A program made the position numbers and the translations under genes. A DNA stretch of 64,000 bases from Dehalococcoidia bacterium (lineage in GTDB: Bacteria; Chloroflexota; Dehalococcoidia; SM23-28-2; RBG-16-64-32): assembly GCA_963667205.1 (NCBI GenBank), contig OY762959.1:680857-744856 (forward strand), in the 5' to 3' direction. Shown in pieces: positions 3,969-42,615 of the stretch (the stretch's first letter is position 1; each line of letters begins with the position of its first letter). The notes under the pieces are model-generated. The model was given only the letters and a program-made list of their open reading frames with translations. It ran no database searches and had not been told where the DNA came from.

Positions 3969-4964
3969 TTGTGGATGGAGATTCAGCGGGTGCTCAAGCG
4001 ATTAGTCCTCGGCGGCGCCGTCCTTGCCGCCTTGCTCAGCGCAGTTTCGCTCGCCGGCGACTTCCACCGGGGAGCAACGGCCAGCGTTCAGCTCAGCCCG
4101 GAGGAGCAGGCGTTCACCGTCCTGCTCACCGACTATCGGGCGGAGAACGGGCTGGGCCCGCTGAGTATCGACTCCAGCATCCAGGCGGCGGCGGAGTGGA
4201 TGAGCACCGACATGGGCGAGGAGAACTACTTCAGTCACACCGACTCGCTCGGCCGTAGTCCGTGGGACCGAATGTGCGACTTCGGTTACTGCTACAACAC
4301 ATGGAAGGGCGAGAACATCGCGGCCGGCTACGCGTCGGCCCAGACGGTATTCGACGCCTGGAGGAACTCCCCCGGCCACAACGCGAACATGCTCAGCGAC
4401 AAATTCGTCGTGATTGGGATCGCGCGCGTGCAGACTGCCGGTAGCACTTACGGCTACTACTGGACGAGCGACTTCGGCGGCTATCTCGCGGAGCCACCGC
4501 CGCCGCCCGCGCCGACCGACACGCCCGGCCCCACTCCATCGTCCGCACCGACCGACACGCCAAGCCCCACGCCATCGTCCGCACCGACGGCCACGGTGAC
4601 GCCTTCACCAACACCTACGCCGTCGCCCTCAACACCGCCTGCAACACCCACGCCTGTTGTGACGCCGGAACCGACGCCGACGGCGACACCGCCGCTGGCG
4701 TTCGCCAGAGCGGACGTCAACTGTGATGGCGAGGTGACAGCGGCGGACGCGCTGGCGCTGCTGCGCTACGCCGGCGAGCTGCCCGTCGAGACGCCGCCGG
4801 GATGTCCGGCGATTGGTGAAGGGGCCGGCGCTGCGCAGACGGCATCCGCCGGGCCGGCTCTGCAGGGCGACGTCGACTGCAACTCAGTCGTTGACGCCGC
4901 CGACGCCCGGGGCGCGCTCCTCAGCGCCAGCGACATCGAGATGCCCTCGGCCTGCGACGCCTAG
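3969..4964 (+). CDS. Secreted CAP/SCP-domain protein (YkwD-like) with Pro/Thr linker and C-terminal Cys-dockerin-like double repeat
   Basis: Signal peptide. YRAENGL...NYFSHTD...PGHNANML motifs of bacterial CAP (YkwD) domains. 42-nt tandem repeats encode PTDTP(G/S)PTPSSA. C-terminal DVNCDGEVTAADALALLRYAG...GCP and GDVDCNSVVDAADA...CDA. Confidence 0.75.
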   Translation: MWMEIQRVLKRLVLGGAVLAALLSAVSLAGDFHRGATASVQLSPEEQAFTVLLTDYRAENGLGPLSIDSSIQAAAEWMSTDMGEENYFSHTDSLGRSPWDRMCDFGYCYNTWKGENIAAGYASAQTVFDAWRNSPGHNANMLSDKFVVIGIARVQTAGSTYGYYWTSDFGGYLAEPPPPPAPTDTPGPTPSSAPTDTPSPTPSSAPTATVTPSPTPTPSPSTPPATPTPVVTPEPTPTATPPLAFARADVNCDGEVTAADALALLRYAGELPVETPPGCPAIGEGAGAAQTASAGPALQGDVDCNSVVDAADARGALLSASDIEMPSACDA

Positions 4965-5025: not shown

Positions 5026-6838
5026 ATGGCTCGTGAGCTCCTCAATGCACACACCCATCGTGACGGACGTGTCGTGAAGCGAGTGCTCTTGCTCCTGCCG
5101 CTGCTCCTGATCAGCGCGCTTGTGCTCCAGGATGGGCTCGAGGCACCGGCACCCTCGTCCGCGGACGGAGAAGTGATTCCGGGGCGCTACATCGTGCTGT
5201 TGGAGCCGGGCACCGACCGCGCCCGGGCCGCGCGGGACCTCGACGTCGACGTGCGCGCGTTCTACGGGAGCGCGGTCAGCGGGTTCTCCGCAGAGATGAG
5301 CGCCGAGCGCGCCGCCGAGATCGCCGAGTCGCCGTCCGTGGCGCTGGTTGAGCCTGTGAGGCGGGTGCGGATCGCGCTGCACGAGAACGCCTTCCAGACG
5401 CTGATCGAGGGCGTCGACCGCGTCGACCTCGACGAGAACGCCGCGGCCGGCGTCGGCCTGCCGGCAGGACCCGACGTGGACGCCGATATCGCAATCATCG
5501 ACACCGGGATCGACCTCGACCACCCGGACCTCAACGCGCTGCCGGGGTTCGGTGCGTATGAGGCACGGCTGCCGGACGATCCGGAAACGGGCTTCCCCGT
5601 CTACGGCGACTGCAACACGGCGAGCGACCCGGAAGACGAGCACGGGCACGGAACGCATGTGGCGGGCACGGCAGGAGCGATCGACAACGAGATCGGCGTC
5701 GTCGGGACGGCCCCGGGCGCGCGCCTCTGGGCCGTGCGCGTGCTGCGCGACGATGGCTTTGGCTGCGACGAGGACGTGCTGCTGGGCATCGACTGGGTGA
5801 CGGAACGCAAGATGGAGTTCGACGAGAGCCCCGGCGACGGCGACGGCGACCCCGGCATCAACTTTACGGTCGCCAATATGAGCCTCGGAGGAGACCCCAG
5901 CCCGGTGCTGTGCGTAGGCATCGCGAACTCCGTGGCCGCGGGCGTGATGTACGCCGTCGCGGCCGGCAACGACGCGGCCGCCGCCTCTGTCAGCGGCCCT
6001 GCTGACTGCGCCGACGTGGTCACCGTCTCCGCCTTCGCGGACTACGATGGGCAGCCCGGTGGGCTGGCGGCAAACGTGTTCGTTGACAGGCTCCGGCCAG
6101 CCGCATCCGGACGACGGTTTCGCGTTGTTCAGCAACTACGGTCCGCTGGTGGAGATTGCCGCGCCGGGTGTATGCATTACGTCGACCTACTTGACGTCGC
6201 CGGACGGGGAGTACGCTGCTCTCAGCGGCACGAGCATGGCCACGCCGCACGTAGCGGGCGCTCTCGCGCTGTTCAAGGCCTCGACGGGCTACGGCGGGCC
6301 GTACGACGGCGCCAGCCTGATGGCGGCGCTCACCGCCGCCGGCTGGACGCGGCCGCAGAACAGCGCCTGCGGCTTCTCCGGCGACCCGGACGGCTCGCCG
6401 GAGGCGGTGCTCTACATGGGGACCTCCTGCTCGACGGCGACGTCTACGCCATCACCAACGCCGTCTCCATCGCCGACACCGACTGAGTCGCCGACGCCGA
6501 GCGCCTCCCCGTCGCCGAGCCCGACGCCGACGGCAAGCCCATCGCCAACGCCGACGTCAACGCCGCAAGCGCTCGACCCGGCCGATATCAACTGTGACCA
6601 CGCCGTCACGGGCAGCGATTCGCTGATCCTGATCCTCTTCGCGGCGAACGTGGAGACGACGCTCTCGCCCGGCTGTCCGCCGATCGGCGCTCTCTCAGTG
6701 CCGGGTTCGGCCGTGGTGCCGGCGCAGCTGCGCGGCGACATGGACTGCAGCGGCGCCGTCGACGTGAACGACGCGTTGGTGATCCTGAGGCTGCTGGGAG
6801 GCGTCGCAGCGCCGACGGAGATGCCCTGCGCCAGCTGA
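5026..6838 (+). CDS. Subtilisin-like serine protease (peptidase S8 with I9 propeptide) with +1 frameshift near 6068-6085; C-terminal Cys-dockerin-like module
   Basis: Asp ([11 protein letters not shown]) and His ([11 protein letters not shown]) are in frame A (4813..6486). Ser ([13 protein letters not shown]) and FSNYGP are in frame B (6047..6838). The junction lies between [10 protein letters not shown] and [15 protein letters not shown]. An alternative GTG start at 5074 gives [12 protein letters not shown]. Confidence 0.75.
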
Positions 6839-8045: not shown

Positions 8046-9101
8046 ATGACGCTGACCGCCTGCGCGCTTCTCCTCGCCTGCAGCGCCAGCGGCGAGTTCG
8101 CCCCGCCGACTGCAACACCGCTTCCATCAGCGACGCCGACGGGCGCTCAGATCGCCTACGTCTCGGGCGAGAGTACCTCAACGATCCGTCTGGTCAATGA
8201 GTTCGCGCTCAACGACGTGAGCATCTCCCAGCCCGGCGGCGTCCGCAGCACCTACCCTCGATGGTCTCCGGACGACGAGCAGATCGCGTTCGTCGCGCCC
8301 CGGGACGGCCAGCTCGAAATCTTCGTCATGGCGTCAGACGGAACGCTGTTGCGGCGGTTGACGAACGACCCGGAGGCGGACCTCCTTCCTGCGTGGTCGC
8401 CAGACGGTTCTCAGATCGCCTTCATCTCTTCGCGTGATGGGAACTCCGAGATATACGTTATGAACGCCGACGGCTCCCAACCGACGCGTCTGACAAACGA
8501 CCCGGCGCTGGCCGCCTACCCAACGTGGTCCCCGGACGGCTCGCAGATCGCCTTCGCATCGGACCGCGCCGGCAATCGGGGGATCTACCTTATGAACGCC
8601 GACGGCAGCGATGTGCGCCGGCTCACCGAATCGCCGCAGCTGGACGTTTCGCCGAAGTGGTCGCCGGACGGCACACGTATCGCTTTCGTGTCGTTCCGGT
8701 CCGGCAACGGTGACATCTACACGGTGGGAGTGGATGGTGAGAACCTTGTACCCGTCACGTCGGCGGAGACGCTGGAGCGAGCGATCGCCTGGTCACCCGA
8801 CGGCTCGCGCATCGCTTACGAGGCGGTCTCCGAGGATGGCACGTCGATCCACATCGTGAATGCCGACGGCAGCGAGGACGAAACGTTGACCGACGAGTTC
8901 TCGGTGGCTACGGACCCGGATTGGTCGCCGGACGGAACGCGGATCGCCTTCATGGCGGAGGTGGACGGCAATCGGGACGTCTACACGATCGAGGTCTTCC
9001 TCGATGACGGTTCGATCGTTGGCGTGACCAGCCAGGCCGAAGCCGATGCCGCCGCCACACCGGAGATCGATCTTAGCTCGTGCCCGGACGCCGTGAGCTA
9101 G
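8046..9101 (+). CDS. TolB-like beta-propeller lipoprotein (PD40 repeats)
   Basis: ATG at 8046 gives MTLTACALLLACSAS. Repeated WSPDGSQIAF / IYVMNADGS blades. Confidence 0.7.
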   Translation: MTLTACALLLACSASGEFAPPTATPLPSATPTGAQIAYVSGESTSTIRLVNEFALNDVSISQPGGVRSTYPRWSPDDEQIAFVAPRDGQLEIFVMASDGTLLRRLTNDPEADLLPAWSPDGSQIAFISSRDGNSEIYVMNADGSQPTRLTNDPALAAYPTWSPDGSQIAFASDRAGNRGIYLMNADGSDVRRLTESPQLDVSPKWSPDGTRIAFVSFRSGNGDIYTVGVDGENLVPVTSAETLERAIAWSPDGSRIAYEAVSEDGTSIHIVNADGSEDETLTDEFSVATDPDWSPDGTRIAFMAEVDGNRDVYTIEVFLDDGSIVGVTSQAEADAAATPEIDLSSCPDAVS

Positions 9102-9330
9102 GAACCGCAGCAAGCTCCTCGATCTCGAAAACGGTAGGTCGGCGTGCGCACCAACCTGGCGCGCGCTGACGACGACGGGCTCACGTGGAGGTTCGTTGAA
9201 TCGCTCGACGAAACCCGCCCGATCCGCAGCTGCGCCTTCCTTGACGCGTCTTCTCAGTTGACTCTGATTATCGTACAGGCAACGGGGTGTTGGGGCATTT
9301 CGTTCGCACACGGCGCAGCGGGAGGGTTGG

Positions 9331-9830
9331 TTGATGCGACAGCCACGGTTTCTGGCTCTGGCCATCGTGGTCAGCCTAGCTACCTTGGCCGGCCCGCCGT
9401 CTGTGGCGCACGGAATCCTCTTGCTTACGGTCGACAGAACGGCTGACACCACGGACGGCTCCTGTGATGCGCCGTCGGATTGTACACTTCGAGAAGCGAT
9501 CATCGCCACCAACGCCGCTGGCACTCCCGACCTAATCAACTTCAGCATCCCGGGCGCTGGACCACACGATCGCTCTGGCATCCCCTCTTCCGACGGTCAC
9601 AGACGCTGTAGTGATCGATGGCACAAGCGAGCCTGACTACGCACCAGGGGTGCCAGTCGTCGTCCTGGACGGCTCCGCCGCCGGGGTCGGCGCTAACGGG
9701 CTTGAGATCACCGGTAGCACCACGGTGAAGGCCTCGTCATCCACAGCTTCGACGCTGCTGGCGTCAAGCTGTCCAGCAATGGCGGCAACGTTCCTGATAC
9801 ACGATCCTAAGCCCCAGGCGTGAGTCGCCC
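9331..9830 (+). pseudogene. Decayed N-terminal fragment of a CSLREA-domain / right-handed beta-helix secreted protein (at least 2 frameshifts, truncated)
   Basis: Signal peptide followed by DGSCDAPSDCTLREAIIATNAAGTPDLINFSIPGAGPH (CSLREA-type motif). The continuation TIALASPLPTVTDAVVIDGTSEPDYAPGVPVVVLDGSAAGVGANGLEITGSTTVK and GLVIHSFDAAGVKLSSNGGNV lies in other frames. The whole thing ends after about 170 aa. Confidence 0.6.
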
Positions 9831-9895
9831 GGCGCCGTCACAACGAAGAAGTCGTCTCCGTCAATCAGATCCTGCGTACTGACCGGCTCGGCAAA

Positions 9896-10138
9896 TCATA
9901 GCTGGATGGCGAATGGAGGCTCGCTGATAGTGGCACCGTTGGCGGGGCTGGAGAGGCTTAGCACCGGCGCCTCATCGGCCTGCCCTTCGCTGCGCGCCGG
10001 CGACAAGAGGGCGAGGGACACTGCGGCAAGCAAGGCGATCGTGAAGACGAGGGCGGTGCCCCGACTCCTTGGAAGTTTCACGAAGCGGAATGTATCACGG
10101 CGAATTGGTCGAGACAAACGGCGGCTTGACGGCGACAT
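9896..10138 (-). CDS. Small hypothetical membrane protein
   Basis: 80-aa ORF with one predicted TM (ALVFTIALLAAVSLALLSPA). No recognisable family. Could be spurious. Confidence 0.25.
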   Translation of the reverse strand: MSPSSRRLSRPIRRDTFRFVKLPRSRGTALVFTIALLAAVSLALLSPARSEGQADEAPVLSLSSPANGATISEPPFAIQL

Positions 10139-10347
10139 CAGTCATCTCGGCCAGCGGAATGTGTGCCTGTCGAGCGAACGTTGGAGTGCGGATTCAGTCT
10201 TCACTTCGACGCTCTCGCCTTTTTCGGCCCGCCAAGGGTGTCACGGCGTCGAGGCGGCGTAAGGGGTTTGAGGCCGTCCCGGCACCCGATTTCGTACTCC
10301 TGATGGGCGCACGGCCTCGTACCTGAGCCACGAACGATCGGCTATGC

Positions 10348-10379
10348 GTCGTGTAACATCCCTGTCGTGTAACATTCCT
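10348..10379. promoter_or_regulatory. Tandem 16-nt direct repeat (GTCGTGTAACATCCCT / GTCGTGTAACATTCCT) in the AT-rich leader of the 10450 gene
   Basis: Two adjacent copies, 15/16 identical, about 70 nt upstream of the ATG at 10450. Looks like a direct-repeat operator or response-regulator site. Confidence 0.45.
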
Positions 10380-10449
10380 ACTAAGTACAAGGTTTACCAA
10401 ATAACGGGAGCACATCCCGCTTAAGCTGCCCACCGACAGTTTCCAAGAC

Positions 10450-12066
10450 ATGCCAGACAAGTTGATCGCCCGCCGTGGCCGACGAGGCGAGTGGATGTGG
10501 GACGCACACCCATCCGCCGCCTCACAGGACGCTGCCCTGGCGCAAGGTGCCCCTCCAGGCACCGGGCGCGGGTTTAGCTTCCCTCGGATTCGGCTGCCAG
10601 GCCTTTCACTGCCCCGTCTACGGCTGCCTTCGATTTCGCTGCCGACCCTGCGGCTGCCGAGTATCTCGCTCCCGCGGCCACGGCCAACTCAGCCCGTCGC
10701 GAGGCCGCGCACGCATCCGGCCCGGCCGCAGACGCGCAGATTTTCACCATCTCAGTTCAGTCTGCCCAGCGTCAGACTGCCATCGGTCAGGTTGCCGCGG
10801 ATGAGGCTGCCCCACCTGCGGTTGCCTACGATCACGCGGCCCCATCTCAAGATGCCAACGGCGCCGCGGACTCCTTCGCTCACACTGCCCCGACTGCCGC
10901 AACGAAAACGACCGAGTTTCAGCCTTCCCAGCATCGATGTAGGATCACGCTTTCCGGCGCTCGGCCGCTTCGCCAGCCGCGTCACATCTCGCGACTTCTG
11001 GACACTGCGGCGCGTAGACGAGGCCGGCCAAGAGCGCGACTACACTCGCTTCGCCGTCGTCCTGGCCGGCCTCTCACTCGTGGCGCTGGCGGCAACCGCG
11101 GTAATCGTCCTCGCCTCGCTCGTCTCCGGAGGCAGCTCCGAAGGGCCCGGCGGACCATTTAGCATCTCGCCGACGACATCGTCGCCGGCCGACACGCCCG
11201 CGCCCAGCGGCCCGACCGAGGCGGTGTGGATCGACGCGCAAATGCTGGAGGACGATCCGCTGGCAGCGGCGACGATCCTCCGGAACACGGCCCTGGCGAC
11301 CGGCGCCACTGAGTTCGTTGCGGCGGCCAATCACATCAGGCAGGCCAGCGTCCTCGGGCGCGCGCTGAACGAGGACTTCCTTTGCCCGCTCCTGGACCAC
11401 TTCAACGTCGACTACGCATCCGGGCCGGCCGGTGCGCCTGCCTGCGGCGGCGCGATCGTACAGCCGCCGCCGGACATCGACGTCTCGCTGGGGCTCTGGG
11501 CGAACGATCTGAGCGCCTGGGAGTTCGATGGGCTGCCGGAAGGCGCCGCCAGCTACAACGAAGGCGACGAAGCTCCGTTCATCCTCAGCTGGGCGGCCGA
11601 GCCGGACGAAGAGTACACCATCGCGATCACGTACGCCTGCCGCGCCGGCGGAGTGCCCGCCATCGACTTCATATCCGGCGTGCCGGCGGCCGACGCGGAG
11701 ATCTTCGCGGCCAACGGCGGCCCAGGCGAAAAGCTACCGGGCGCCGCCGTGCCGTTGCTCAACACGCCCGACCTTGACGTTCGCGAGGGCGGCATCCCTC
11801 TCCTCTACCTTTACGGAGGACACTTCCTCCTGCTGCCTCAGGGCCCCGGTCCGGCGGCCGAGTGTGAGGATGAGCAGACGATCACTGTTCCCGTCCAGGC
11901 CGATGCCGATGAGATAGTCCTGATGGGCAGCGTCAAGCTTGCCGACGCCGACGACCACGACGGCCAGGGGGCCTCAGATGCCACCGCCAGCATCAGTCTG
12001 AGCGCCTCGGTCAGCTCTGTGGGCACGGCTACTGCCGCGTTCGAGCCGGGCGTCATCGCCCCCTGA
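10450..12066 (+). CDS. Single-pass membrane protein with N-terminal array of about 17 LPxx(R/S) pentapeptide repeats and roughly 310-aa extracytoplasmic domain
   Basis: Residues about 45-160 read LPGLS LPRLR LPSIS LPTLR LPSIS LPRPR ... LPSVR LPSVR LPRMR LPHLR LPTIT, matching a 15-nt DNA periodicity. One TM follows (FAVVLAGLSLVALAATAVIVLASLV). The C-terminal domain has no recognisable family. Confidence 0.6.
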   Translation: MPDKLIARRGRRGEWMWDAHPSAASQDAALAQGAPPGTGRGFSFPRIRLPGLSLPRLRLPSISLPTLRLPSISLPRPRPTQPVARPRTHPARPQTRRFSPSQFSLPSVRLPSVRLPRMRLPHLRLPTITRPHLKMPTAPRTPSLTLPRLPQRKRPSFSLPSIDVGSRFPALGRFASRVTSRDFWTLRRVDEAGQERDYTRFAVVLAGLSLVALAATAVIVLASLVSGGSSEGPGGPFSISPTTSSPADTPAPSGPTEAVWIDAQMLEDDPLAAATILRNTALATGATEFVAAANHIRQASVLGRALNEDFLCPLLDHFNVDYASGPAGAPACGGAIVQPPPDIDVSLGLWANDLSAWEFDGLPEGAASYNEGDEAPFILSWAAEPDEEYTIAITYACRAGGVPAIDFISGVPAADAEIFAANGGPGEKLPGAAVPLLNTPDLDVREGGIPLLYLYGGHFLLLPQGPGPAAECEDEQTITVPVQADADEIVLMGSVKLADADDHDGQGASDATASISLSASVSSVGTATAAFEPGVIAP

Positions 12067-12304
12067 TCGACAGACCAGCGGCAGACCCGCGTTCCCTGAT
12101 GCTGGTGGACCGCCTTCAGGGAGCGGCATTCTCCATGGGCTGGGCTGACCGCGCCAGCCGATGTTGGCCAGCGCCGCGACGCCACGGCCAGAGATGTATC
12201 CGCCACTAGACTCGCGTTGACGGTCGCAGTCCTGTCGCGCACAGCAACTGATGACCAGAAGGCGCAGGATGAAGAAGAGCCAGATGCGACGACTTACGAT
12301 GGCC

Positions 12305-12678: not shown

Positions 12679-13317
12679 ATGATTCGATCCAGGAAGCCAA
12701 CGACACTCACTCCCATCACCACCGCGATCTTCGTCCTCGCCGCCATCGCGGCGCTGGCCGTTCTCTCCATCGGCGGAGGCGAAGCAGAGGCCGGTATCAC
12801 TCACACCGTTTTCGTCAACAACGACCGCTTCTGCGACAGCGCGGGCTCCGATTGTTCGCAACCGCACTCGATCCAGATCAGCGCTGGGAACACGGTCCAG
12901 TGGCTCGACGGCCAGAGCGGCGGCACCCACACCGTGACGCAGTGTACCGGCGACGGCACAGGATGCCCCGCTGGCGGCGGCTTCGATAGCGGCGTCAAGA
13001 GCGATCCGAAGGCCGGCTACCTCGCACACGTTTTCCCGGACGAAGGCACGTTCTTCTTCCGCTGCCAGATCCATGGCAACTCGATGCGTGGGATAGTGAT
13101 GGTTATCGGCCCGGCAACGGACACGCCGACTCCTGTACCGGGGACACCAACAGATTCGCCCGGCGATGATTCGCCAACGGCCACTCCGGCAGACGTCCCA
13201 AAGACCGGCGGCGAACCGGGGTCGGGCGGCTTGCCGCTGATATTGGTCGTCCTGGCGTTGGGTGGCGCTTTGGCGGTGGCCGGCTCCAGTGCGCTCTACG
13301 CCGCTCGGCGACGCTAG
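12679..13317 (+). CDS. Cupredoxin (type-1 copper, plastocyanin/azurin-like) with C-terminal LPXTG-like sorting signal
   Basis: Signal/TM, then cupredoxin ligand pattern H..C-Q-I-H-G-N-S-M (FRCQIHGNSMRGIV). P/T-rich linker. VPKTGG followed by a hydrophobic stretch (LPLILVVLALGGALAVAG) and an RRR tail. Confidence 0.75.
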   Translation: MIRSRKPTTLTPITTAIFVLAAIAALAVLSIGGGEAEAGITHTVFVNNDRFCDSAGSDCSQPHSIQISAGNTVQWLDGQSGGTHTVTQCTGDGTGCPAGGGFDSGVKSDPKAGYLAHVFPDEGTFFFRCQIHGNSMRGIVMVIGPATDTPTPVPGTPTDSPGDDSPTATPADVPKTGGEPGSGGLPLILVVLALGGALAVAGSSALYAARRR

Positions 13318-13455: not shown

Positions 13456-13605
13456 GCGCCGCCTTGGTTAGCAGCTCTCGGTGGGCGGCGTCAGCTCGAA
13501 TAGGTCGAAGGGCGCCGGGACAAGGAGCTCAGCATCGCGGTCGCTCGGGAGAGGCCCGGCCCCGCCGGGTCCAGGTACGGCTCGCGAAAGGCGAGCTGAC
13601 GGGCG
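13456..13605 (-). pseudogene. 3'-terminal fragment (last ~50 codons plus TAA) of a phosphoesterase paralog
   Basis: 13468-13605 is about 88% identical to 14953-15090, the 3' end of the intact gene. Encodes ...FDLFELTPPTESC* vs ...FDLFELPPPTESR*. No upstream ORF continuity. Confidence 0.55.
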
Positions 13606-13849
13606 ACGCCGGCGTGCCAGCGACTACCGAGGCTCTGCGATGACAACGACAGGCAGTTTCTGCTCAACACTCCACTTCAGCGGTCTTCCCATGCCGACGT
13701 CCTTTCGTCACGACCAGACCACCTCGAATCGACCGACTGGCTGAGATTCGACGGCTATTGCCGATACTAAAGGTAGGCCAAATGGCCAAGAAGCTACTCG
13801 GGCGTTCCGAGCGCGGCCTGTCCTACTCATATTTAGAAAGGCGGACGAA

Positions 13850-14801
13850 ATGGTATCGGATCGTAAACTCAAGGCCAATCGTCGTAACGCAAAGCGTTCG
13901 ACCGGACCCAAGAATTCAACGCGCAGCAGGTACAACGCCCGGCAGCATTGCATCCTATCGAGGGCGGCTATCATCGAGGATGGCGACGCAAAGGAGGACC
14001 CACGCGAGCTGGAATCTCTCCTGGAGGCGCTCTGGAAGGACCGCGAGCCCGTGGGTGCGATGGAGGAGTTCCCTGGTGGATCGCATTGCCTCCTGTCAGT
14101 GGCGCCTGCGTCGGGCTCAGCTAGCCGAAGTGGGCGAGATCAGGCGGGTCGCCGACAGCGCCGTGATGGACGCTCTGGACTCTACCGTTGACAGATACGA
14201 ATTATCGATGGAGAAAAAGGAGATGGGCCCCCCTTCCGTCGTTGGCGGAAGCAGCGAGCGCGAATTGGCCAAGACCACTCATGGGATCGCCCACATCCAG
14301 ATTGTCCTTGATCGCATGAGCGGCTTGGTCGAAGATCAAGGAACCCTCACCAAGAATCAACTAACTGTAGTGGCCACTATCTACGGCCGTCGGGTAGGCG
14401 GCTTCGCAGTCTTCCTCTCAAACATCGCGGCCATGTCAACGCGTGGCCTGCAGGCGAAGGACGACGAGGAGCCGGACGGCAAGGAGCCAGATACACGCCG
14501 TGACATTCTTTCGCCAGGAGTCGGCAACGAGCTCCTCCTGGCCTGGATCGACGCGGAAATCGCGAGGCTAAGGAACGAAGCTGGCTTAGTGATCGAGAGG
14601 GAGGGGCTCGAACTGCACGCCACGGTACTGTCGCGGCAGCTTCCCAGTGACAAGGTCCTTGAAAAGATCGGCAGGTACGAGACAACGATTGAGCGCCAGA
14701 TGTATCGAACGTTGAAGGAGCTCCAGGGGCTACAGGCTGCCCGGCGGACGTTCGACTCGCTTGGGCGCTTCGGACAACGGAGTGTGATGGCACTAGAATG
14801 A
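13850..14801 (+). CDS. Hypothetical protein, low-GC (foreign-looking), with +1 frameshift near 14068
   Basis: MVSDRKLKANRRNAKRSTGPKN...MEEF (frame of 13850) continues as LVDRIASCQWRLRRAQ... (frame of 13758). There is an extra C in TTCCCTGG. GC is clearly below the local mean. No recognisable domain. Confidence 0.45.
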
Positions 14802-14943
14802 CGGCAAGACCTCAAAGGGCGGGCCAAGCGGCCCGTCCTTCTTCTTCATGCGCGCTCCCCTGCCGTAGCGCACATATGTTCGTCTCGTCACACAAAGCGT
14901 TTCTGCGAAACGAAGCCACCACAGCGTCGTCTAGCTGCTGACT

Positions 14944-16608
14944 CTAGCGGGACTCGGTGGGCGGTGGCAGCTCGAACAGGTCGAAGGGCGCCGGGACTAG
15001 GAGCTCAGCGTTGCGGTCGCTCAGCGAGAGGCCCGGCCCAGCCGGGTCCAACTGCGGATCACGGAAGGCGAGCTGACGAGCGACGCCGGCGAGGAGCCGC
15101 TGGTTGAGCCCGTCCTCCGGCGTCCCGTCCTCGGCGTCGCCGGGGTTCACCGTCGTCGCCAGGCCGTACATCGTCGTGAAGATGGAGAGCGTGCCGTCGC
15201 GGTTGTCGACGATCTCCAGCAGGCGGCCCTGCATCGGGAAGTCGAGGGCGCCGGCCGTCGTCACTTCCCAGTAGCCGCCACCGGCAGCGGCGGGCCTGGC
15301 CGAAATGCTGTTGCGCCCGGTGTGGCCGGAGAGCCAGAGGACCACGTTCGGAAAGCGGCCGACGAGATCCTCCACCTCCCCACGGAGGGTGCGAGGCTCG
15401 CCGTCGGTGCCGGGATACGGGTTCGTCATGACGGCGGACGGGTGGTGGCTAACGATCACCATCAGGCGATCGGCGTTTTCCGTCGTGACGAACTGGCCGC
15501 CGCCGTCGGCGTAGCTGCTGCTGTGAGCGGTCAGCCGTTCTTCCAGCCAGTCGTATTGCGCCTGGTCGAGGCTGCCGGAGGGGAAGCCGGACGGATTGGC
15601 CGAGTCGAGAACGATGAAGACGACGCCGTTCTCCTCGAAGGTATAGTGGGCACGGCCCTCATTCGCCCCCTGTATCGAGAAGCCATGCCCCAGCGGTCCC
15701 GGGCCTGTGTTCGGCGGCGGGAGGTGCTCGCGGATCCAGTCGGAGTGCGAGATCAGGCGTCGGTTCTTGTCGGCGCCCACGCCGCGGATTATCGTCCCCG
15801 GGTCGTTCAGGAGCTCGGCAGAAGGCCCGGGCCCGAATATTGAGCCGCTGTCGCAGACCTCTGCGAGGGCGGCGGGGCCGAGCGCGAATATCTTCTGCGC
15901 TCCGGTGGCGACCTCGGCGGCACGCTCGGTGAGCGGAAAGTTGCCCTGGCTGAGGGCGTCGTGGTTGCCGGCTACGGCGTACCAGGGGTAGTTGATCCCC
16001 TCCGGGATGAACGCCTCCTGGGCCAGCGTCAGCAGGTCTGCATAGGCCTTTGCCGGCGACTCCGTCTGCACGCCCTCGTAACCGACGGCGCCGCTCTCCG
16101 GATCGACCGGGACGCCGTCCATCAGGTCGATGAACCAGCGCAGCTCGTTGAACTGGGCGTTGTCGGCGGCGCTGCCGGTGTGGATCGCGAAGTCAACGGG
16201 GGCGCGGGTGACGGGACTGCGATCGACGACGTTGGCCTGGGCGATGAGCGCTTCGGCGACGTGCAGACTGAGTGACTCCTGCGACCGGAAGGACTTATCA
16301 TTGACGGCGGAGTTGCAGGCTTCGAGCCATTCGCTCCGCAGAGGCGATTCTTCATCGACGATGCCAAAGTCGGAGAGCTGGTGGAAGACAACGAGCAAAA
16401 GACGACGGTCCCGGCGGTCGCTCTGGGCCTGCGCAAGCTCCGTGCGGACCGTGTACGGCTCGCCCTCAGCGACGACGAGGTTCCCCTCGCTGTCCACGCC
16501 CAGCGTCTGAGTGAGCGTCGTCCCGGAAGGCGGTGGCTCGTCGCTCTTGCACGCGGCGGCGAGCGCGAGGAGAGCGAGGAGCGCGGCGCACACGAAGAGT
16601 CGGTGCAT
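14944..16608 (-). CDS. Calcineurin-like metallophosphoesterase lipoprotein
   Basis: ATG at 16608 gives MHRLFVCAALLALLALAAACKS (lipobox). GNHD metallophosphoesterase motif (YAVAGNHDAL). About 555 aa. Confidence 0.75.
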   Translation of the reverse strand: MHRLFVCAALLALLALAAACKSDEPPPSGTTLTQTLGVDSEGNLVVAEGEPYTVRTELAQAQSDRRDRRLLLVVFHQLSDFGIVDEESPLRSEWLEACNSAVNDKSFRSQESLSLHVAEALIAQANVVDRSPVTRAPVDFAIHTGSAADNAQFNELRWFIDLMDGVPVDPESGAVGYEGVQTESPAKAYADLLTLAQEAFIPEGINYPWYAVAGNHDALSQGNFPLTERAAEVATGAQKIFALGPAALAEVCDSGSIFGPGPSAELLNDPGTIIRGVGADKNRRLISHSDWIREHLPPPNTGPGPLGHGFSIQGANEGRAHYTFEENGVVFIVLDSANPSGFPSGSLDQAQYDWLEERLTAHSSSYADGGGQFVTTENADRLMVIVSHHPSAVMTNPYPGTDGEPRTLRGEVEDLVGRFPNVVLWLSGHTGRNSISARPAAAGGGYWEVTTAGALDFPMQGRLLEIVDNRDGTLSIFTTMYGLATTVNPGDAEDGTPEDGLNQRLLAGVARQLAFRDPQLDPAGPGLSLSDRNAELLVPAPFDLFELPPPTESR

Positions 16609-16688
16609 GATCATTCTGAATACTAAACGCTTGACACGCCGCCATGGGCGCAATAGGCTGGCAGCCAGTTGAACCAGGAGGATACGTT

Positions 16689-26585: not shown

Positions 26586-28214
26586 TTATTCAACGACTAG
26601 AACCTCCGAGCCCATGAGGGGACACTCCGCCTCTTGCGTCACGCTAAGTCCAGCGTCGAAGCGCAGTACCTTGAGCGAGTCGACGGGTGTCACCTCGCCG
26701 CCGCAGTCCACGTCACCCCAAGGATGGGGGGACGCATTCTGCACATCGACGACCTGTCCGAAGTCCGGACAATCGCCGGTGTTGGTGCCCAGACCGGCGT
26801 CGAAGCGCAGAGTAAGCAGCGAGTCAACGGGGTCGGCGGAGCCGGAGCAGTTGCTGTCCCCCCAGGTCGCCTCGAGACCCTCAGGCAGCAGCCCGTGGAC
26901 GAAGATGTCGTCGACGCCATTCGTGTCGCCGGGCACCAGGTTGGTGGCGAACGACCGGAAGGCCACGACGAGTCCGTTGGCGCTGATGGCCGGGTCGAAG
27001 GAACCAGCGTCGCTCTCGCCGCTGTCGCTGCTGACACTAACTCGCGTCGTCTCGCCCGTCTCGCGGTCGTGGACGAAGACGTCGCTGACGCCGTTGGTGT
27101 CGCCGGGCACCAGGTTGCTGGCGAACGAGAAGAACGTGACATGGCGGCCGTCACCACTGATGTCCGGGGCAAAACTCTCCTCGTTGCTCTCGACGCCCGC
27201 GGTGCTCACGCTCACGCGGGTCGTTTCTCCGGTCTCCAGGTCGTATACGAAGATGTCGCTTCGGTCGTTCGTGTCGCCGGGCACGAGGTTGGTGGCGAAC
27301 GACCGGAAGGCCACGTATCGGCCTTCGCCGCTTATCGCGGCGTCAAAGCTGGCGCCGTTCGGCTCGACGCTAGCGGCACCGGCGCTAGAGCTGCGGAATA
27401 CCTAGCCATCGGAGTGAAGCGGTGTAACCTCGTTCGCCATGAGGTCCCATACCTGCAGAAACCCGGCACTTGCGAAAATGACTCGGCGGCCGTCGGCGCT
27501 AAAGGTGAGTTGGCAGGTGTCGTCGGGTTTGAAGCCCGTATGAATTACTATGCCCGTATCCAACCCCTCCACGTAGAGGCCTGCCCCCTGCGCCCCGCTC
27601 TCGGCATCGGCGTAGTAAACGACGCGGCGACCGCCGGGGCTGGTGGTCTTACCTAGTTTCGGGCATGTGTTGCCACCTTCAAAGAGGCCTAAATTGTCGA
27701 CGTCGAGGAAGCCTTTTATGGCGAATCCTGTGATAGCTAGCCCTAGGATGTCCTGATGGGATATTGCCGCGAGGCTCACGGAGAACTCGAAGGCAATCGC
27801 CTGTCCATCGTCACTGATGTCCGGGGAACGGCTGAAGTCATTACTACCACCGCCTATGCTATTCTCGCTGACGCGCAGGGTCTCGCCAGTGACTACGTCG
27901 CGGCGGAAGACGTCCAGGACCCCGTTCGTGTCGCCCAGGACAAGGTTCGTGGCGCTGGATTCGAAGGCCACGTAGCGGCCGTCGCCGCTGATGACAGGGG
28001 GGCCGCTGCCCGCGTCGGCCTGTCCGCCCTGGCTGTCCACGCTGATACGCTCGGTAATGGCAGCGGGCGACGCCTCGGTCGGGGCACCCGCCGGGAGCAG
28101 CATCGTGAGCAGGCCCAGCAGCGGCAGTAGAACGAGCCAGAACGACAGCGTACGGACTGGAGGGAGCGAGGAAGGGACGCGGCTAGGGAGCGGCTTCGTG
28201 GTCTCAGGGTGCAC
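26586..28214 (-). CDS. Secreted PD40-repeat beta-propeller protein with C-terminal Cys-dockerin-like module; single in-frame TAG at 27402-27404
   Basis: ORFs 27402..28214 and 26586..27314 are in the same frame. The translation is continuous across the TAG (..VTPLHSDG*VFRSSSAGAASVEPNGASFDAAISGEGRYVAFRSFATNLVPGDTN..). Repeats are of the ISGDGRYVAF.S.A.NLVPGDTNG..DVF type. Confidence 0.6.
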
Positions 28215-34380: not shown

Positions 34381-36152
34381 TCAGGTGAAGTCGAAGACTA
34401 GCTTCACATCGCTGCCCATGCCGGGGCAGTCCACCCCCTGGCTGACGCTCAGCCCGGCGTCGAAGCGCAGGATCTTCAGCGAGTCGACGGGCGAGACCTC
34501 ACCCGAGCAGTCGACGTCGCCCCACAGATGCAGCGAGGCATCCTGGACGTCGATGATCTGACCGAAGAGCGGGCAGTCGCCGGTGTCGGTGCTCAACCCG
34601 GCATCGGAACGCAGGGTGATCAGCGAGTCCACGGGATCGACGGCCACTGAGCAGTTGTTGTCGGCCCAGACCGCTTGCTGGGCGAAAGGCGTGGCGGTCG
34701 CCGTGGGAGTGGGCTCCGTCGTGAGAATGATCGGCTCGCCGACGTCGTGGTCGAAGTCGAGGGGCGAATCGAGGAGGAAGGAGCCGAAGCCGGTGATGCC
34801 CTTGATCTCTTCGTTGGTGCCACCGGGATTGATGCTGATGAAGTCGCCGACGTTGAACCCGGCTGCCGAGGCGACGTCGATCTCGCTGTCGCCGGCGGCG
34901 GCGCCGGCGATCGTCTCGGTCTCACTGGGCATCGTCGTGGGACTCGGGCTTGGGGGCTCAGCGTCGGGGTGGGCGAGACGGTCGCTGCGGCGCCGCAAGT
35001 GGCGCTGACGCAGTGCAGCACCTTCAGGTCGCCGTTGGAGACATCGTAGTAGCTGGCGACCGGGAAGCCGCTGGCGTCCAGCTTCAACGACATGTGGGCG
35101 CCGATGTTGCCCGGCCCGTCCGGAGAGGCGATAACGTTGCCGGCGCTGCAGGTGGCATCGCCGCAGTGGATCACCTTGACGTCCTCGTTGGTGACGTCGC
35201 GGTAGGCCACCACCGGATTGCCGGCGGCGTCGAGCTCCAACGAGCTAAACGCGCCAACGTTGTCCACACCGTCCGGGACCTTGATGACGTTACCCGGCTG
35301 CAGTTGGCGTTGCCGCAGTGGACGACTTTCAGGTGTTGTTGTTGGCGTCGTAGTAGCTGACGACCGGAAAACCAGCGTCGTCCAGCGCCAGCGACGGCCA
35401 CGATCCGACAAGGGCGGACGCGTCCACCGTAGTGATGACGTTGCCAGCGCTGCAGATGGGGTTGCCGCAGTGGATCACTCGCAGGTTGATGGGGAATGCC
35501 TGGTAGGCCACCACCGGGTTGCCGAGCGCGTCCAGCATCAGGGAAGGGAAGCTGGCGAAGATGCCGGTGTCGGGAGTGGTGATCGTGTTGCCCGCGCTAC
35601 AGTTCGGGTCGCTGCGGTGGAGGATCTTCAGGTCGCGGTTCGTGCTGTCGGTGTAGGCGACAATCGGATTGCCGGCCCCGTCCAGCGCAAGGGACGTAGA
35701 GAGAGCGACATCGTCCACCCCGTCCGGCGAGGTGATGGAGTTGACGCCAGCGCAGTTCGGATTGCTGCAGTGGATCACCTTCAGATCACCGTTGGTTCGA
35801 TCATGATAGCTGATCACCGGGTTGCCGCCCGCGTCCAGCACCAGCGACGTGCCTTCGCCGACTTCCGTCTGTGACCCGTCTACGGAGGTGATGACGTTGC
35901 CGGCGCCACAGCCGGGATCGCCGCAGTGCACCAACTTCAGGTCGCCGTTGGTTTCGTCCCAGTAGCTGATGACGGGACTGCCGCCGGCGTCCAGCGCCAT
36001 CGACGTGTACCCGCCGACACATCACCCACCGTGTCAACAGCGACGATGCTGGTGGTGCTGGCGCCGCCGGAGGGCGCGTGCCAGAGGAGGGCCGCGACCG
36101 CGAAGGCCGCGATCGCGGCAACGATCCAAAGCTGCGGCTTGACAAGCGTCAT
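34381..36152 (-). pseudogene. Secreted protein of tandem ~43-aa Cys-containing repeats (beta-propeller-like) plus C-terminal Cys-dockerin-like module; at least 4 frameshifts
   Basis: Signal peptide (ORF 35937..36152). Repeats G..SL.LD..GNPV.SY.D.TN.DLKV.HCGD..CSAGN.IT..D spread over ORFs 35329..36000, 35171..35401 and 34620..35411. Linker plus module in ORF 34381..34998. A 2-nt deletion relative to sister repeats is visible near 35300-35340. Confidence 0.6.
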
Positions 36153-41135: not shown

Positions 41136-42615
41136 CTACTCAGGAACGAGTTCGCCCGCTCCTGGGCAGTCATCGGTCTCGGGATAAGCAAGGCCGCCGC
41201 TGAACTCCAGGATGAGCAGGACGTCATGGCCGCCGACGCTCCCATCGCAATCCCAGTCGCCGCCCGTCCAGTCGCCCCACTGCTGCCCCAGTTGCGGACA
41301 GTTGGGGAACGGATCGACCTGGACGTCGGCCAGCTGGAGCAGGGTGATCAGCGCGTCGTGGCTGTCCGGCGGGCCGCCGCCACAGTCCGCGTCTGCCCAG
41401 CGCAGGCCATCGCAGTCGTCGCCGTTGCCGTCGTTGTCGGAGTCAGCCTGGTCCGGGTTAGCGTCATCCGGGCAGTTATCGAGGGAAAGGACGGAGTTGG
41501 GGAGAAAGACGCCGCTGATGCTCTCGTCGAAGAGGAGCGGGTCGCCAAGGCCCGCGAACTCGACGCCTGCGCCGGGCGGGACGAACAGGAGGTTCTTCGC
41601 ATCGAGTTCAGTCGTGGCGTTGGCGAAGAACGCCCCGGTCAGTGGGTTGTATTGCGTGATCGCGTTGTTGGTGCGCGTGTTCCACGTCCACGGGCCCGAA
41701 GTCTCCGTGCCGCCGAGGAGGGGGAACGGATCGCCCTGGCCGATCGACCACGAGTAGTCGCTGATGATGGTGGAGGCGGTCCCGTCACTCATCACGTAAG
41801 ACATGTAGCCGCCGCTCAACGTCGACTGGACGACGGATCCGCCGAGCTCCGAAGGCAGGTTGACGTTGACGAAGCTGAACGGGTTGAACGTGCCGCTGAA
41901 CTGGGCCCACGTCCGGTTGTACGAGCGCTCGACGATCGCGTCTGCGAACCCGGACTTTTGGAATTCGACGGTGAAGTCGGAGACGTTGTTGAGGGTGATG
42001 TCCTGCACGCCGCCGGCCTGCGTGCGCAGGCGCAGGTCGTTCTGGCCGTCGGCGAGCACGCCGGTGCCTGCCAAGTTGAGCAGGCCCTGAACGACGACGA
42101 TGCTGGGGATGCCGTCGTCGTCCGGGTCGGAGAGGTGCGGCGGCGGGTCGAACACGCAGTAGGTGGTGATCTCGGTCGTCAGGCCGCCCGGGAGCTCACC
42201 GTTGGGGCCGACGACGTATGTACCGATGATGCCCCTGGGGAAGAAGCCGAACTCATCGTAGGAGTTGACCTTGCCGCTGAATTCGACGAACGTGCTCGTC
42301 CCATCGTAGTTGCCGAAGCCGACTCCGTTTAGCGAGCCGTCCGCCTGGGCCGTGCCGCCGACGTTGATCGGATTGACGCCCTGGAGAGTGAATGCGGGCT
42401 GCTGGTCAAGCGGACCGGAGGGTGAAGTTGAGGTTGTCGAATGCCCCCCAATCGTTGTCGTGGCCGCCCTCGTTCGCAGTCTGGGCGAACAGGGCGCCAC
42501 AATTGGCATCGACGTCAGCCGCGGCGGCCGGCCTGACCGGCGATGACAGCGCGACGAGAATGAACACGGAGACCGTGAGTGTAGGCAGCCAGCGTAGCAT
42601 CCAGAATCTCCCCAA
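41136..42615 (-). CDS. Secreted protein with thrombospondin-type-3-like Asp-rich Ca-binding repeats and C-terminal Cys-dockerin-like module; frameshift near 42415
   Basis: Signal peptide MLRWLPTLTVSVFILVALSSPVRPAAAA is in ORF 42406..42615. The body (..FTLQGVNPINVGG...DDANPDQADSDNDGNGDDCD...) is in ORF 41136..42743. Inserted between trmD and rplS. Confidence 0.6.

Follow-up and report, generated by a model that had tools for sequence, protein, structure and literature searches.

Several described systems each share a trait with the repeat protein reported here. Pentapeptide repeat proteins (PF00805 and relatives) stack A(D/N)LXX units, with a small residue at i-2 and D or N at i-1, into an Rfr-type quadrilateral β-helix of four units per coil and many coils. 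Elastin-like (VPGVG)n chains follow a hydrophobic-Pro-x-hydrophobic-x pattern and are disordered or extended, and TonB carries a low-complexity, proline-rich (EP)n(KP)n tandem repeat, of lineage-variable length, by its single N-terminal transmembrane (TM) segment. Short basic, aromatic and Gly-containing motifs (the extended signal peptide region, ESPR, YSIRK-G/S and KxYKxGKxW) stand at the extreme N-terminus of surface-displayed proteins, ahead of a hydrophobic segment. The plant storage protein γ-zein, with its (VHLPPP)8 repeat, has given rise to the (VRLPPP)3 ‘sweet arrow peptide’ (SAP), which is amphipathic, cell-penetrating and membrane-active (PMC6150340). Here we analyse a gene at positions 10450-12066 of a 64,000-nucleotide stretch from a Dehalococcoidia bacterium (contig OY762959.1, positions 680,857 to 744,856, forward strand; hereafter the window), whose product bears arrays of Leu-Pro pentads ahead of a single TM helix. 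The pentad repeats are genuine and conserved, and the gene is a real, conserved coding region of uncultured Chloroflexota. Its parts are as follows, all on the + strand.

10450..12066 (+): coding sequence, 538 residues plus stop; the start at 10450 (MPDKLIARRG...) is backed by homologs.
10450..10503 (+): N-terminal family motif, residues 1-18 (MPDKLIARRGRRGEWMWD), a low-confidence β-hairpin in AlphaFold.
10579..10683 (+): pentad block A, residues 44-78, 7 units: FPRIR LPGLS LPRLR LPSIS LPTLR LPSIS LPRPR.
10684..10761 (+): Pro/Arg-rich linker between the blocks, residues 79-104, 26 residues, non-periodic, of variable length in the alignment.
10762..10866 (+): pentad block B, residues 105-139, 7 units: LPSVR LPSVR LPRMR LPHLR LPTIT RPHLK MPTAP.
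10894..10938 (+): degenerate tail pentads, residues 149-163, LPQRK RPSFS LPSID, aligning with a conserved ...LPRLPRxKRPxPSLPxV... stretch.
10945..11049 (+): conserved pre-TM segment, residues 166-200 (...FPALGRFASRVTSRDFW...RDYTR), in part also present in P0020 and P0021; predicted local distance difference test score (pLDDT) 45-54.
11050..11124 (+): single transmembrane helix, residues 201-225 (AlphaFold helix 199-225).
11125..11217 (+): extracytoplasmic Pro/Ser/Thr-rich linker, residues 226-256, variable in length and sequence, with a ratio of nonsynonymous to synonymous divergence (dN/dS) of 0.87 and pLDDT <50.
11218..11424 (+): helical subdomain, residues 257-325, with C312 (and C332); found only in the ortholog group, Cys invariant among orthologs.
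11425..12063 (+): β-sandwich domain, residues 326-538, with C397 and C472; the part common to the wider family.

A search of 5.8 billion proteins returned 18 relatives of the 538-residue protein, all derived from metagenomes or metagenome-assembled genomes (MAGs). The pentad-bearing orthologs are 48-65% identical and come from several independent metagenomes and one Chloroflexota MAG, in assemblies of different samples (ENA, NCBI, JGI and Logan). Seven other loci keep both the open frame and the start M(P/S)DK(L/F)(I/F)ARRG; in the DNA of L002 (the Chloroflexota MAG), L003/L004, L007 and L010 the frame is open to this conserved start and both arrays are present. A separate assembly, L001 (ENA ERZ25074053), is 99.7% identical to the window and its arrays are identical. 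No paralog of the gene was found in the window or the ortholog loci. Database annotation obscures this picture: the exact match P0001 is called from the internal M118, and most other ortholog calls (P0004, P0007-P0010, P0012 and P0014) likewise start at internal methionines, which costs them the family motif at the N-terminus and some or all of the arrays, although the full-length frames are open and conserved. The lesson for annotation is that gene callers have truncated the N-terminus in most members and so hidden motif and repeats alike.

The periodicity of the array is pronounced at the protein level. Across residues 1-205 there are 16 pairs of prolines five residues apart, as against 4.74±1.85 in 20,000 shuffles (shuffle maximum 13). 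Eleven units are strict ‘LP’ pentads, 14 lie in two perfectly registered runs and a permissive count gives 17. Over 134 units from 12 orthologs the consensus is L (66%), then P, then R (37%), S (22%), H, Q or T, then L (45%), I (19%) or V (12%), then R (37%), S (26%) or K (13%); position 4 is L, I, V or F in 80% of units and position 5 is R, S or K in 77%. The DNA has a self-identity of 0.50-0.55 for a lag of 15 and of 0.60-0.63 for one of 30, compared with about 0.3 at other lags. Mean DNA identity between pentad units is 0.55, Tandem Repeats Finder (TRF) called no tandem repeat over the arrays, and units identical in peptide, such as the two LPSIS units, differ in synonymous codons. Because the DNA period is weak, codons differ and TRF makes no call, we regard the repeats as old and maintained at the protein level, and not as the product of recent slippage or assembly expansion. 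An earlier note, made from the sequence of the window alone, had described one array of about 17 Leu-Pro pentads matching a 15-nucleotide (nt) DNA period. The proline statistics and the conservation among orthologs bear out the array itself and 17 agrees with the permissive count; there are, however, two blocks split by a linker instead of one array, and the 15-nt period is real but weak.

How strongly are the units conserved? Values of identity and dN are pooled over four ortholog comparisons. Block A has an amino acid identity of 0.70 (dN 0.21, dN/dS 0.19) and block B one of 0.65 (dN 0.25), which is similar to the β-sandwich (0.64, dN 0.24). The best-conserved segment is the N-terminal motif (0.74, dN 0.13), and the non-repeat cytoplasmic stretches stand at 0.36 (residues 19-43, dN 0.49) and 0.32 (residues 79-104, dN 0.65). 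Copy number varies as listed here.

L011: array reduced to RRRLRLPRPSLPTV, about 3-5 pentads.
L005, L009, P0006 and P0011: single array, 10-11 pentads.
P0005: single array, 15 pentads by the same counting rule.
Window, L002, L003, L007, L010 and P0003: two arrays, 13-20 pentads.
P0002: two arrays, the largest, 22 pentads.

Block A is the one missing from the single-array orthologs (L005, L009, P0005, P0006 and P0011), and block B is present in all orthologs except L011. In L005/L012 and L009 the single array was seen in genomic DNA. Repeat number thus does vary between relatives, a point that the earlier note had wished to see checked: the range is about 3 to 22 pentads, with the array lost in L011.

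The topology of the protein follows from a few simple features. Residues 201-225 are the sole segment with a 19-residue Kyte-Doolittle hydropathy (KD19) of at least 1.6 (peak 2.72; maximum elsewhere 1.15). Net charge is +28 on the N side of the TM helix and -37 on its C side, from which the positive-inside rule predicts a cytoplasmic location for the N-terminal 200 residues. All four cysteines (312, 332, 397 and 472) lie C-terminal to the TM helix and are invariant among orthologs. This layout fits a predicted type II (N-in, C-out) bitopic envelope protein and agrees with the single-pass architecture and basic cytoplasmic N-terminus first proposed for it. AlphaFold2 with the ortholog alignment gives residues 20-165 a pLDDT of 27-34 and no secondary structure. 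The hydrophobic moment of the arrays is 0.62-0.74 at 144° and 0.12-0.14 at 120°; the peak at 144° arises because this angle is the second harmonic of a period of 5, and it matches no canonical conformation. Residues 257-538, in contrast to the arrays, are modelled at a mean pLDDT of 89 (42-sequence alignment) as a four-helix subdomain (~263-321) followed by a β-sandwich (~345-532). Foldseek of this model against the PDB found nothing at E<=1e-3, only generic β-sandwiches, and a sequence profile search of the PDB with the C-terminal part gave no match. Pfam-A hmmscan of the whole protein found no family at E<=1 and an NCBIfam scan no match; scans of the β-sandwich alone and of 20 distant family members against both collections found nothing except DUF11 in an extra C-terminal module of P0097. 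The claim that the outside domain belongs to no known family therefore holds across Pfam, NCBIfam, PDB and Foldseek.

By its sequence features the pentad protein belongs to an unannotated Chloroflexota family defined by an N-terminal motif, a TM helix and a β-sandwich. A C-terminal profile searched against 1.84 billion representatives matched 111 clusters (at 50% identity) at E<=1e-3, and 87 of these reached E<=1e-10. With the narrower ortholog alignment, a scan of metagenomes brought up orthologs only. The wider-family clusters match only the last ~200 residues, beginning at profile position ~165, and the helical subdomain lies outside them. Invariant β-sandwich columns W350, W357, G372, C397, D406, C472 and A508 are all present in the window protein, C397 and C472 being invariant in both the 33- and the 42-sequence alignment. 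Most full-length members have ~300 residues and open with RF(I/V)G(R/H)RG-x5-W-x-W; the motif occurs in 43 retrieved members and, as MPDKLIARRGRRGEWMW, in the window, where a single TM helix likewise separates motif and β-sandwich and a Pro/Arg-rich stretch precedes the helix. Members named in their source are ‘hypothetical protein’ or ‘DUF11 domain-containing protein’ of Dehalococcoidia or Chloroflexota MAGs. Among the 43 motif-bearing members the segment from WxW to the TM helix is 10-18 residues long in 31 and 114-189 in nine; in the ortholog group of the window it is ~180. Proline makes up 0.15-0.23 of this segment and basic residues 0.13-0.25 in both length classes, as against 0.09 and 0.06 in the C-terminal domains. 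Since length is bimodal and the compositional bias the same, the arrays most plausibly arose when an ancestral Pro/Arg juxtamembrane segment expanded in this lineage. A clean five-residue phase occurs only in the ortholog group of the window, and a partial one in P0033 and P0034. Another subfamily (P0025, P0026, P0027, P0033, P0034, P0036 and P0047) has long cytoplasmic linkers with a different motif, (A/V)(V/I)(P/R/K/A)WS(R/K/Q)(I/V/L/F)xPR, often present twice, which points to an independent elaboration of the same segment. The family motif is reminiscent of ESPR, YSIRK and KxYKxGKxW in that the TM helix follows it after 10-18 residues in minimal members; however, there is no sequence match, the hydrophobic segment is a 25-residue anchor and not a cleavable h-region, and the gap is ~180 residues in the orthologs of the window.

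Based on these observations, we favour, if at somewhat less than even confidence, a reading in which the arrays form a disordered, polycationic strip adsorbed to the anionic inner leaflet, where they tune the N-terminal motif in its reach and avidity. The juxtamembrane segment would have grown as a five-residue unit, L-P-(R/S/H/Q)-(L/I/V)-(R/S/K), was duplicated within it. The resulting array would be intrinsically disordered and extended, as proline at every fifth residue blocks both α-helix and regular sheet. Residues 41-170 hold 23 R and 20 L with a single D, a composition that sets the array apart from an inert soluble linker. Cationic and 40% aliphatic, it would form a multivalent basic-hydrophobic strip running along the anionic inner leaflet, and this membrane-bound strip would set how far, and with what avidity, the N-terminal motif acts. 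Outside the cell, beyond the TM helix and the Pro/Ser/Thr linker, the predicted disulfide-containing β-sandwich would be displayed. By analogy, the nearest documented counterpart of the array is the γ-zein-derived (VRLPPP)n peptide: both are cationic, aliphatic tandem repeats of Arg/His-Leu-Pro type, extended and not helical, and VRLP itself occurs in the window protein. The two differ in that the γ-zein repeat has a period of 6 with three prolines and is an amphipathic polyproline-II (PPII) helix, whereas the window repeat has a period of 5, one proline and a low moment at 120°; moreover, a plant storage protein or synthetic peptide has no homology to the window gene.

A number of points weigh against membrane adsorption. 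We infer both the adsorption and any role for the N-terminal motif. That the units are as constrained as a folded domain speaks for an interaction more specific than adsorption to lipid in general. At neither the PPII angle (120°) nor the α-helical angle (100°) are the arrays amphipathic, and their low pLDDT could in part reflect a shallow alignment (19 sequences). Out-of-register alignment of units can inflate dS and bias the dN/dS of the repeats; against L002, dS is 1.87 for block A and 0.64 for the C-terminal domain. Finally, the array is nearly gone from L011, a 65% identical ortholog, so that either the array is dispensable or the L011 copy is defective.

The specificity of the constraint is more readily accommodated if the array is a docking platform, a reading that we consider possible but unlikely. 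Here each L-P-x-Φ-R unit, or each ten-residue pair, would be a short linear motif that concentrates a cytoplasmic partner at the membrane, the candidates being a DnaK-type chaperone or a lineage-specific protein; DnaK prefers Leu-rich cores flanked by basic residues. Units as constrained as a folded domain beside a drifting inter-block spacer, strong residue preferences at positions 1, 4 and 5, and a 30-nt (decapeptide) period stronger than the 15-nt one would all suit such motifs, and copy-number variation is typical of motif arrays tuned for avidity. The genomic context is less favourable: no cytoplasmic gene is conserved next to the pentad gene in any locus, and a six-frame scan of the window and all ortholog loci found pentad arrays in no other gene. 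L011 does without the array. A search with residues 1-200 against 5.8 billion proteins returned nothing at E<=0.01 and brought up no other protein family, probably owing to composition correction, so that similar arrays may exist elsewhere.

Does the exact sequence matter at all? On an entropic spacer or ruler model it would not: a stiff Pro-rich chain would simply keep the N-terminal motif at a distance of tens of nanometres from the membrane. Predicted disorder, copy number that varies widely up to complete loss, and the bimodal linker length of the family with its constant Pro/Arg bias all suit this idea, and Pro-rich spacers occur widely among bitopic envelope proteins, TonB included. That of TonB lies in the periplasm, with a period of 2 and no aliphatic residues, whereas the window array is cytoplasmic with a period of 5; elastin-like repeats, whose residue pattern resembles the pentads, are Gly-rich, uncharged and belong to an extracellular animal protein, whereas the pentads are Arg-rich with almost no Gly. 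An inert chain should evolve like the inter-block linker (identity 0.32), yet the blocks stand at 0.65-0.70, and the aliphatic content is atypical of soluble disordered linkers. We therefore hold it improbable that spacing is all that the arrays provide.

The region upstream of the gene bears on a different proposal, that of a signalling component. Two features were located there, in a leader that the earlier note had called AT-rich; its GC content is indeed lower than nearby (58% vs 65-70%), so that it is AT-rich only in relative terms.

10348..10379 (+): 16-nt tandem duplication (GTCGTGTAACATCCCT / GTCGTGTAACATTCCT) with a TGTAAC box in each copy; TRF gives 2.0 copies with 93% match.
10368..10396 (+): promoter-like element of extracytoplasmic function (ECF) sigma type, -35 TGTAAC (10368-10373), 17-nt spacer, -10-like GGTTTA (10391-10396).

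TRF confirms the duplication, which the earlier note had reported, and TGTAACATY matches in the window at 10352 and 10368. Only the window and L001 have the duplication; each orthologous locus has a single box. Six distinct loci (L002, L003, L007, L005/L012, L009 and L011) carry TGTAACATY-N14-AACGTTRAC 80-86 nt before the ATG. The ortholog box is TGTAAC-N17-CGTTAA, and the window has the -10-like GGTTTA in place of CGTTAA. This architecture matches ECF-sigma promoters and the published ECF16 consensus, (T/C)GTAAC-N16/17-CGAA (PMC8315932, PMC3420878). No sigma-70-type promoter was found in a scan upstream of the gene. The 16-nt repeat would then duplicate the -35-like box of a conserved, predicted ECF-type promoter. 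On the opposite strand a second box, GGTAACC-N16-CGTTTT, lies at ~7463 (-) in L002, ~7144 (-) in L003, ~7093 (-) in L007 and ~5450 (-) in L010, ahead of a divergent gene for a ~1,450-1,500-residue secreted protein (~190 nt upstream of it in L002). Because both are preceded by ECF-type boxes, the pentad gene and the divergent secreted-protein cluster may share an ECF regulon. As a separate observation, a leader stretch GGGCGTCTTGC...GC(C/A)GCCC (window 10397-10449) is conserved in L002, L003, L005, L007, L009 and L011 and could form a 9-bp hairpin; no pair showed compensatory changes, and the leader has no Rfam match.

Could the protein itself be part of an ECF pathway, as an unconventional single-pass anti-sigma factor or sensor whose motif and/or array binds sigma while the β-sandwich senses an envelope cue? 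The conserved, predicted ECF-type promoter and the second box (GTAAC-N17-CGTT) before the surface-protein cluster in four loci would fit. So would the bitopic layout that pairs a small cytoplasmic part with an outside β-domain, as in RsgI-type anti-sigma factors, to which the N-in orientation, the outside Pro/Thr linker with β-sandwich and, in some loci, nearby cohesin/dockerin-like genes add further likeness. However, none of the loci examined has a sigma gene next to the pentad gene (neighbours called or scanned in the window, L001, L003, L005 and L007 include no Sigma70_r2/r4 gene), Pfam and NCBIfam find no anti-sigma domain (zf-HC2, RskA, RsgI_N or the class II anti-sigma domain, ASD) in the cytoplasmic part, and the motif has only ~18 residues. 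A protein can be an ECF target and yet not a regulator, and we regard this role as distinctly unlikely.

A regular rod, either a quadrilateral β-helix (possible register Φ-R-L-P-x = i-2..i+2) or a rigid PPII rod, is very improbable, although the earlier note had put it forward. Like the pentapeptide repeat proteins, the arrays have a strict tandem five-residue period with a conserved Leu and, two residues away, a second aliphatic position that could face inward, and by our own reasoning Pro could occupy i+1 of a type II turn. The window units differ in their invariant Pro and in having Arg/Ser in place of D/N, there being no D/N position in the 134 units; no hidden Markov model of PF00805, PF13599 or PF13576 matches at E<=1, which bears out the earlier statement that the protein is not a member of the A(D/N)LXX family. 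Runs of at most 7-8 units make less than two coils, the AlphaFold2 model has no strands at its pLDDT of 27-34, the moment at 120° is low, and L011 has deleted the array; these results give the solenoid or rod no support. An artefactual array, produced by expansion in assembly or by the misjoining of non-coding DNA to a shorter gene with an internal Met start, is scarcely credible: the downstream starts of most database calls (P0001 at M118) and a third-position GC content (GC3) of 0.67 in the repeat region against 0.84 in the C-terminal domain might suggest it, but the same frame, start and arrays recur across assemblies of several samples at 48-65% identity, the motif is family-wide, block dN/dS is 0.19-0.53 and units diverge too far in DNA for assembly collapse or expansion, so that the assembly expansion named in the earlier note is effectively ruled out.

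What is new here, and what is not? As a general kind, Pro-rich tethers of low complexity are familiar from bacterial envelope proteins, and the array is probably best described as a proline-rich tandem-repeat tether of a bitopic envelope protein, not a categorically new system, its function being a prediction. A search of published literature on Leu-Pro pentad repeats or this family yielded nothing relevant. Absent from curated resources are a cytoplasmic period-5 Arg/Leu/Pro repeat with unit conservation at the level of a folded domain and variable copy number; a family of at least 111 clusters with a distinctive N-terminal motif and a confident β-sandwich model that has no solved relative; and a conserved, predicted ECF-type promoter that ties the pentad gene to a neighbouring giant surface-protein cluster. 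It is conceivable, though we would not expect it, that the whole amounts to more: the pentad would be a functional repeat not described before, forming an extended ribbon, cationic and aliphatic and selected at the sequence level, that binds the inner leaflet or a cytoplasmic partner multivalently, within a new Chloroflexota-specific, ECF-regulated family of N-terminally anchored surface proteins that has its own N-terminal signature and a β-sandwich without solved relative; in several genomes the gene would share its regulation with that of a giant secreted protein and of a cohesin/dockerin-like cluster. Follow-up could open a way into the envelope biology and the ECF regulons of an uncultured Chloroflexota lineage, and the arrays offer a natural example of how basic-hydrophobic proline repeats behave beside a membrane.

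Turning to the neighbourhood, the divergent giant secreted protein, in which no Pfam match was found, and its small cohesin/dockerin-like companions are present in L002, L003, L007 and L010 and missing from the window, L001 and L005, so that the cluster is not a fixed partner of the pentad gene. One of the small proteins ends in a VPNTGG sortase-like tail. Cohesins stood low in the fold list of the C-terminal model, and cohesin/dockerin-like proteins are neighbours in L002, L003 and L007; cohesin identity was considered for the β-sandwich and rejected, as hhalign of the family profile against the neighbouring cohesin-like protein showed no relation. Window positions 9100-10200 are gene-poor with broken open reading frames (ORFs), and no gene is called there in L001. 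Two of these ORFs, 9331..9636 and 9611..9823 (+), together resemble a frameshifted, truncated protein with a signal peptide and a β-helix-type body (CTLREAI..AN motif), and 9896..10138 (-) is an 80-residue stub with a signal-peptide-like start. The region is probably a rearrangement scar where other genomes hold the giant-protein cluster.

Between L001 and the window there are 14 small indels over 13.5 kb. L001 is also ~690 nt longer within a gene of PD40 (WD40-like β-propeller) repeats (L001 7120-7723 against window ~8524-8606), whose product has 580 residues in L001; this reflects either a difference in blade number or assembly collapse of repeats in one of the sequences. Directly past the stop codon of the pentad gene, at 12071-12091, stands an 11-nt tandem repeat (CAGACCAGCGG, 1.9 copies), and no terminator-like site was found at these positions. 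The downstream neighbour, 12679..13317 (+), encodes 212 residues with an anchor or signal at the N-terminus, a cupredoxin-like domain (weak halocyanin/plastocyanin NCBIfam matches) and a C-terminal VPKTGG, hydrophobic stretch and RRR tail like a sortase sorting signal. A lower-GC island at 13600-14900 (57-60% vs 65-70%), with a 347-residue ORF (13758..14801) that has no family match, may be foreign DNA. At 14944..16653 (-) lies a TIGR03767-family metallophosphoesterase (E=1.5e-112, above the curated cut-off), an ordinary neighbour that is not syntenic elsewhere. Finally, tblastn with the L002 neighbours, together with a Dockerin_1 match in the CAP-domain protein at 3969..4964, located dockerin-like modules (D-x-D-C-G-G-x-V-D-x-x-D-x-L) at window 4710-4952, 6581-6829, 26589-26885, 34399-34680 and 41139-41738, and the organism seems to use cohesin-dockerin-type surface assembly.

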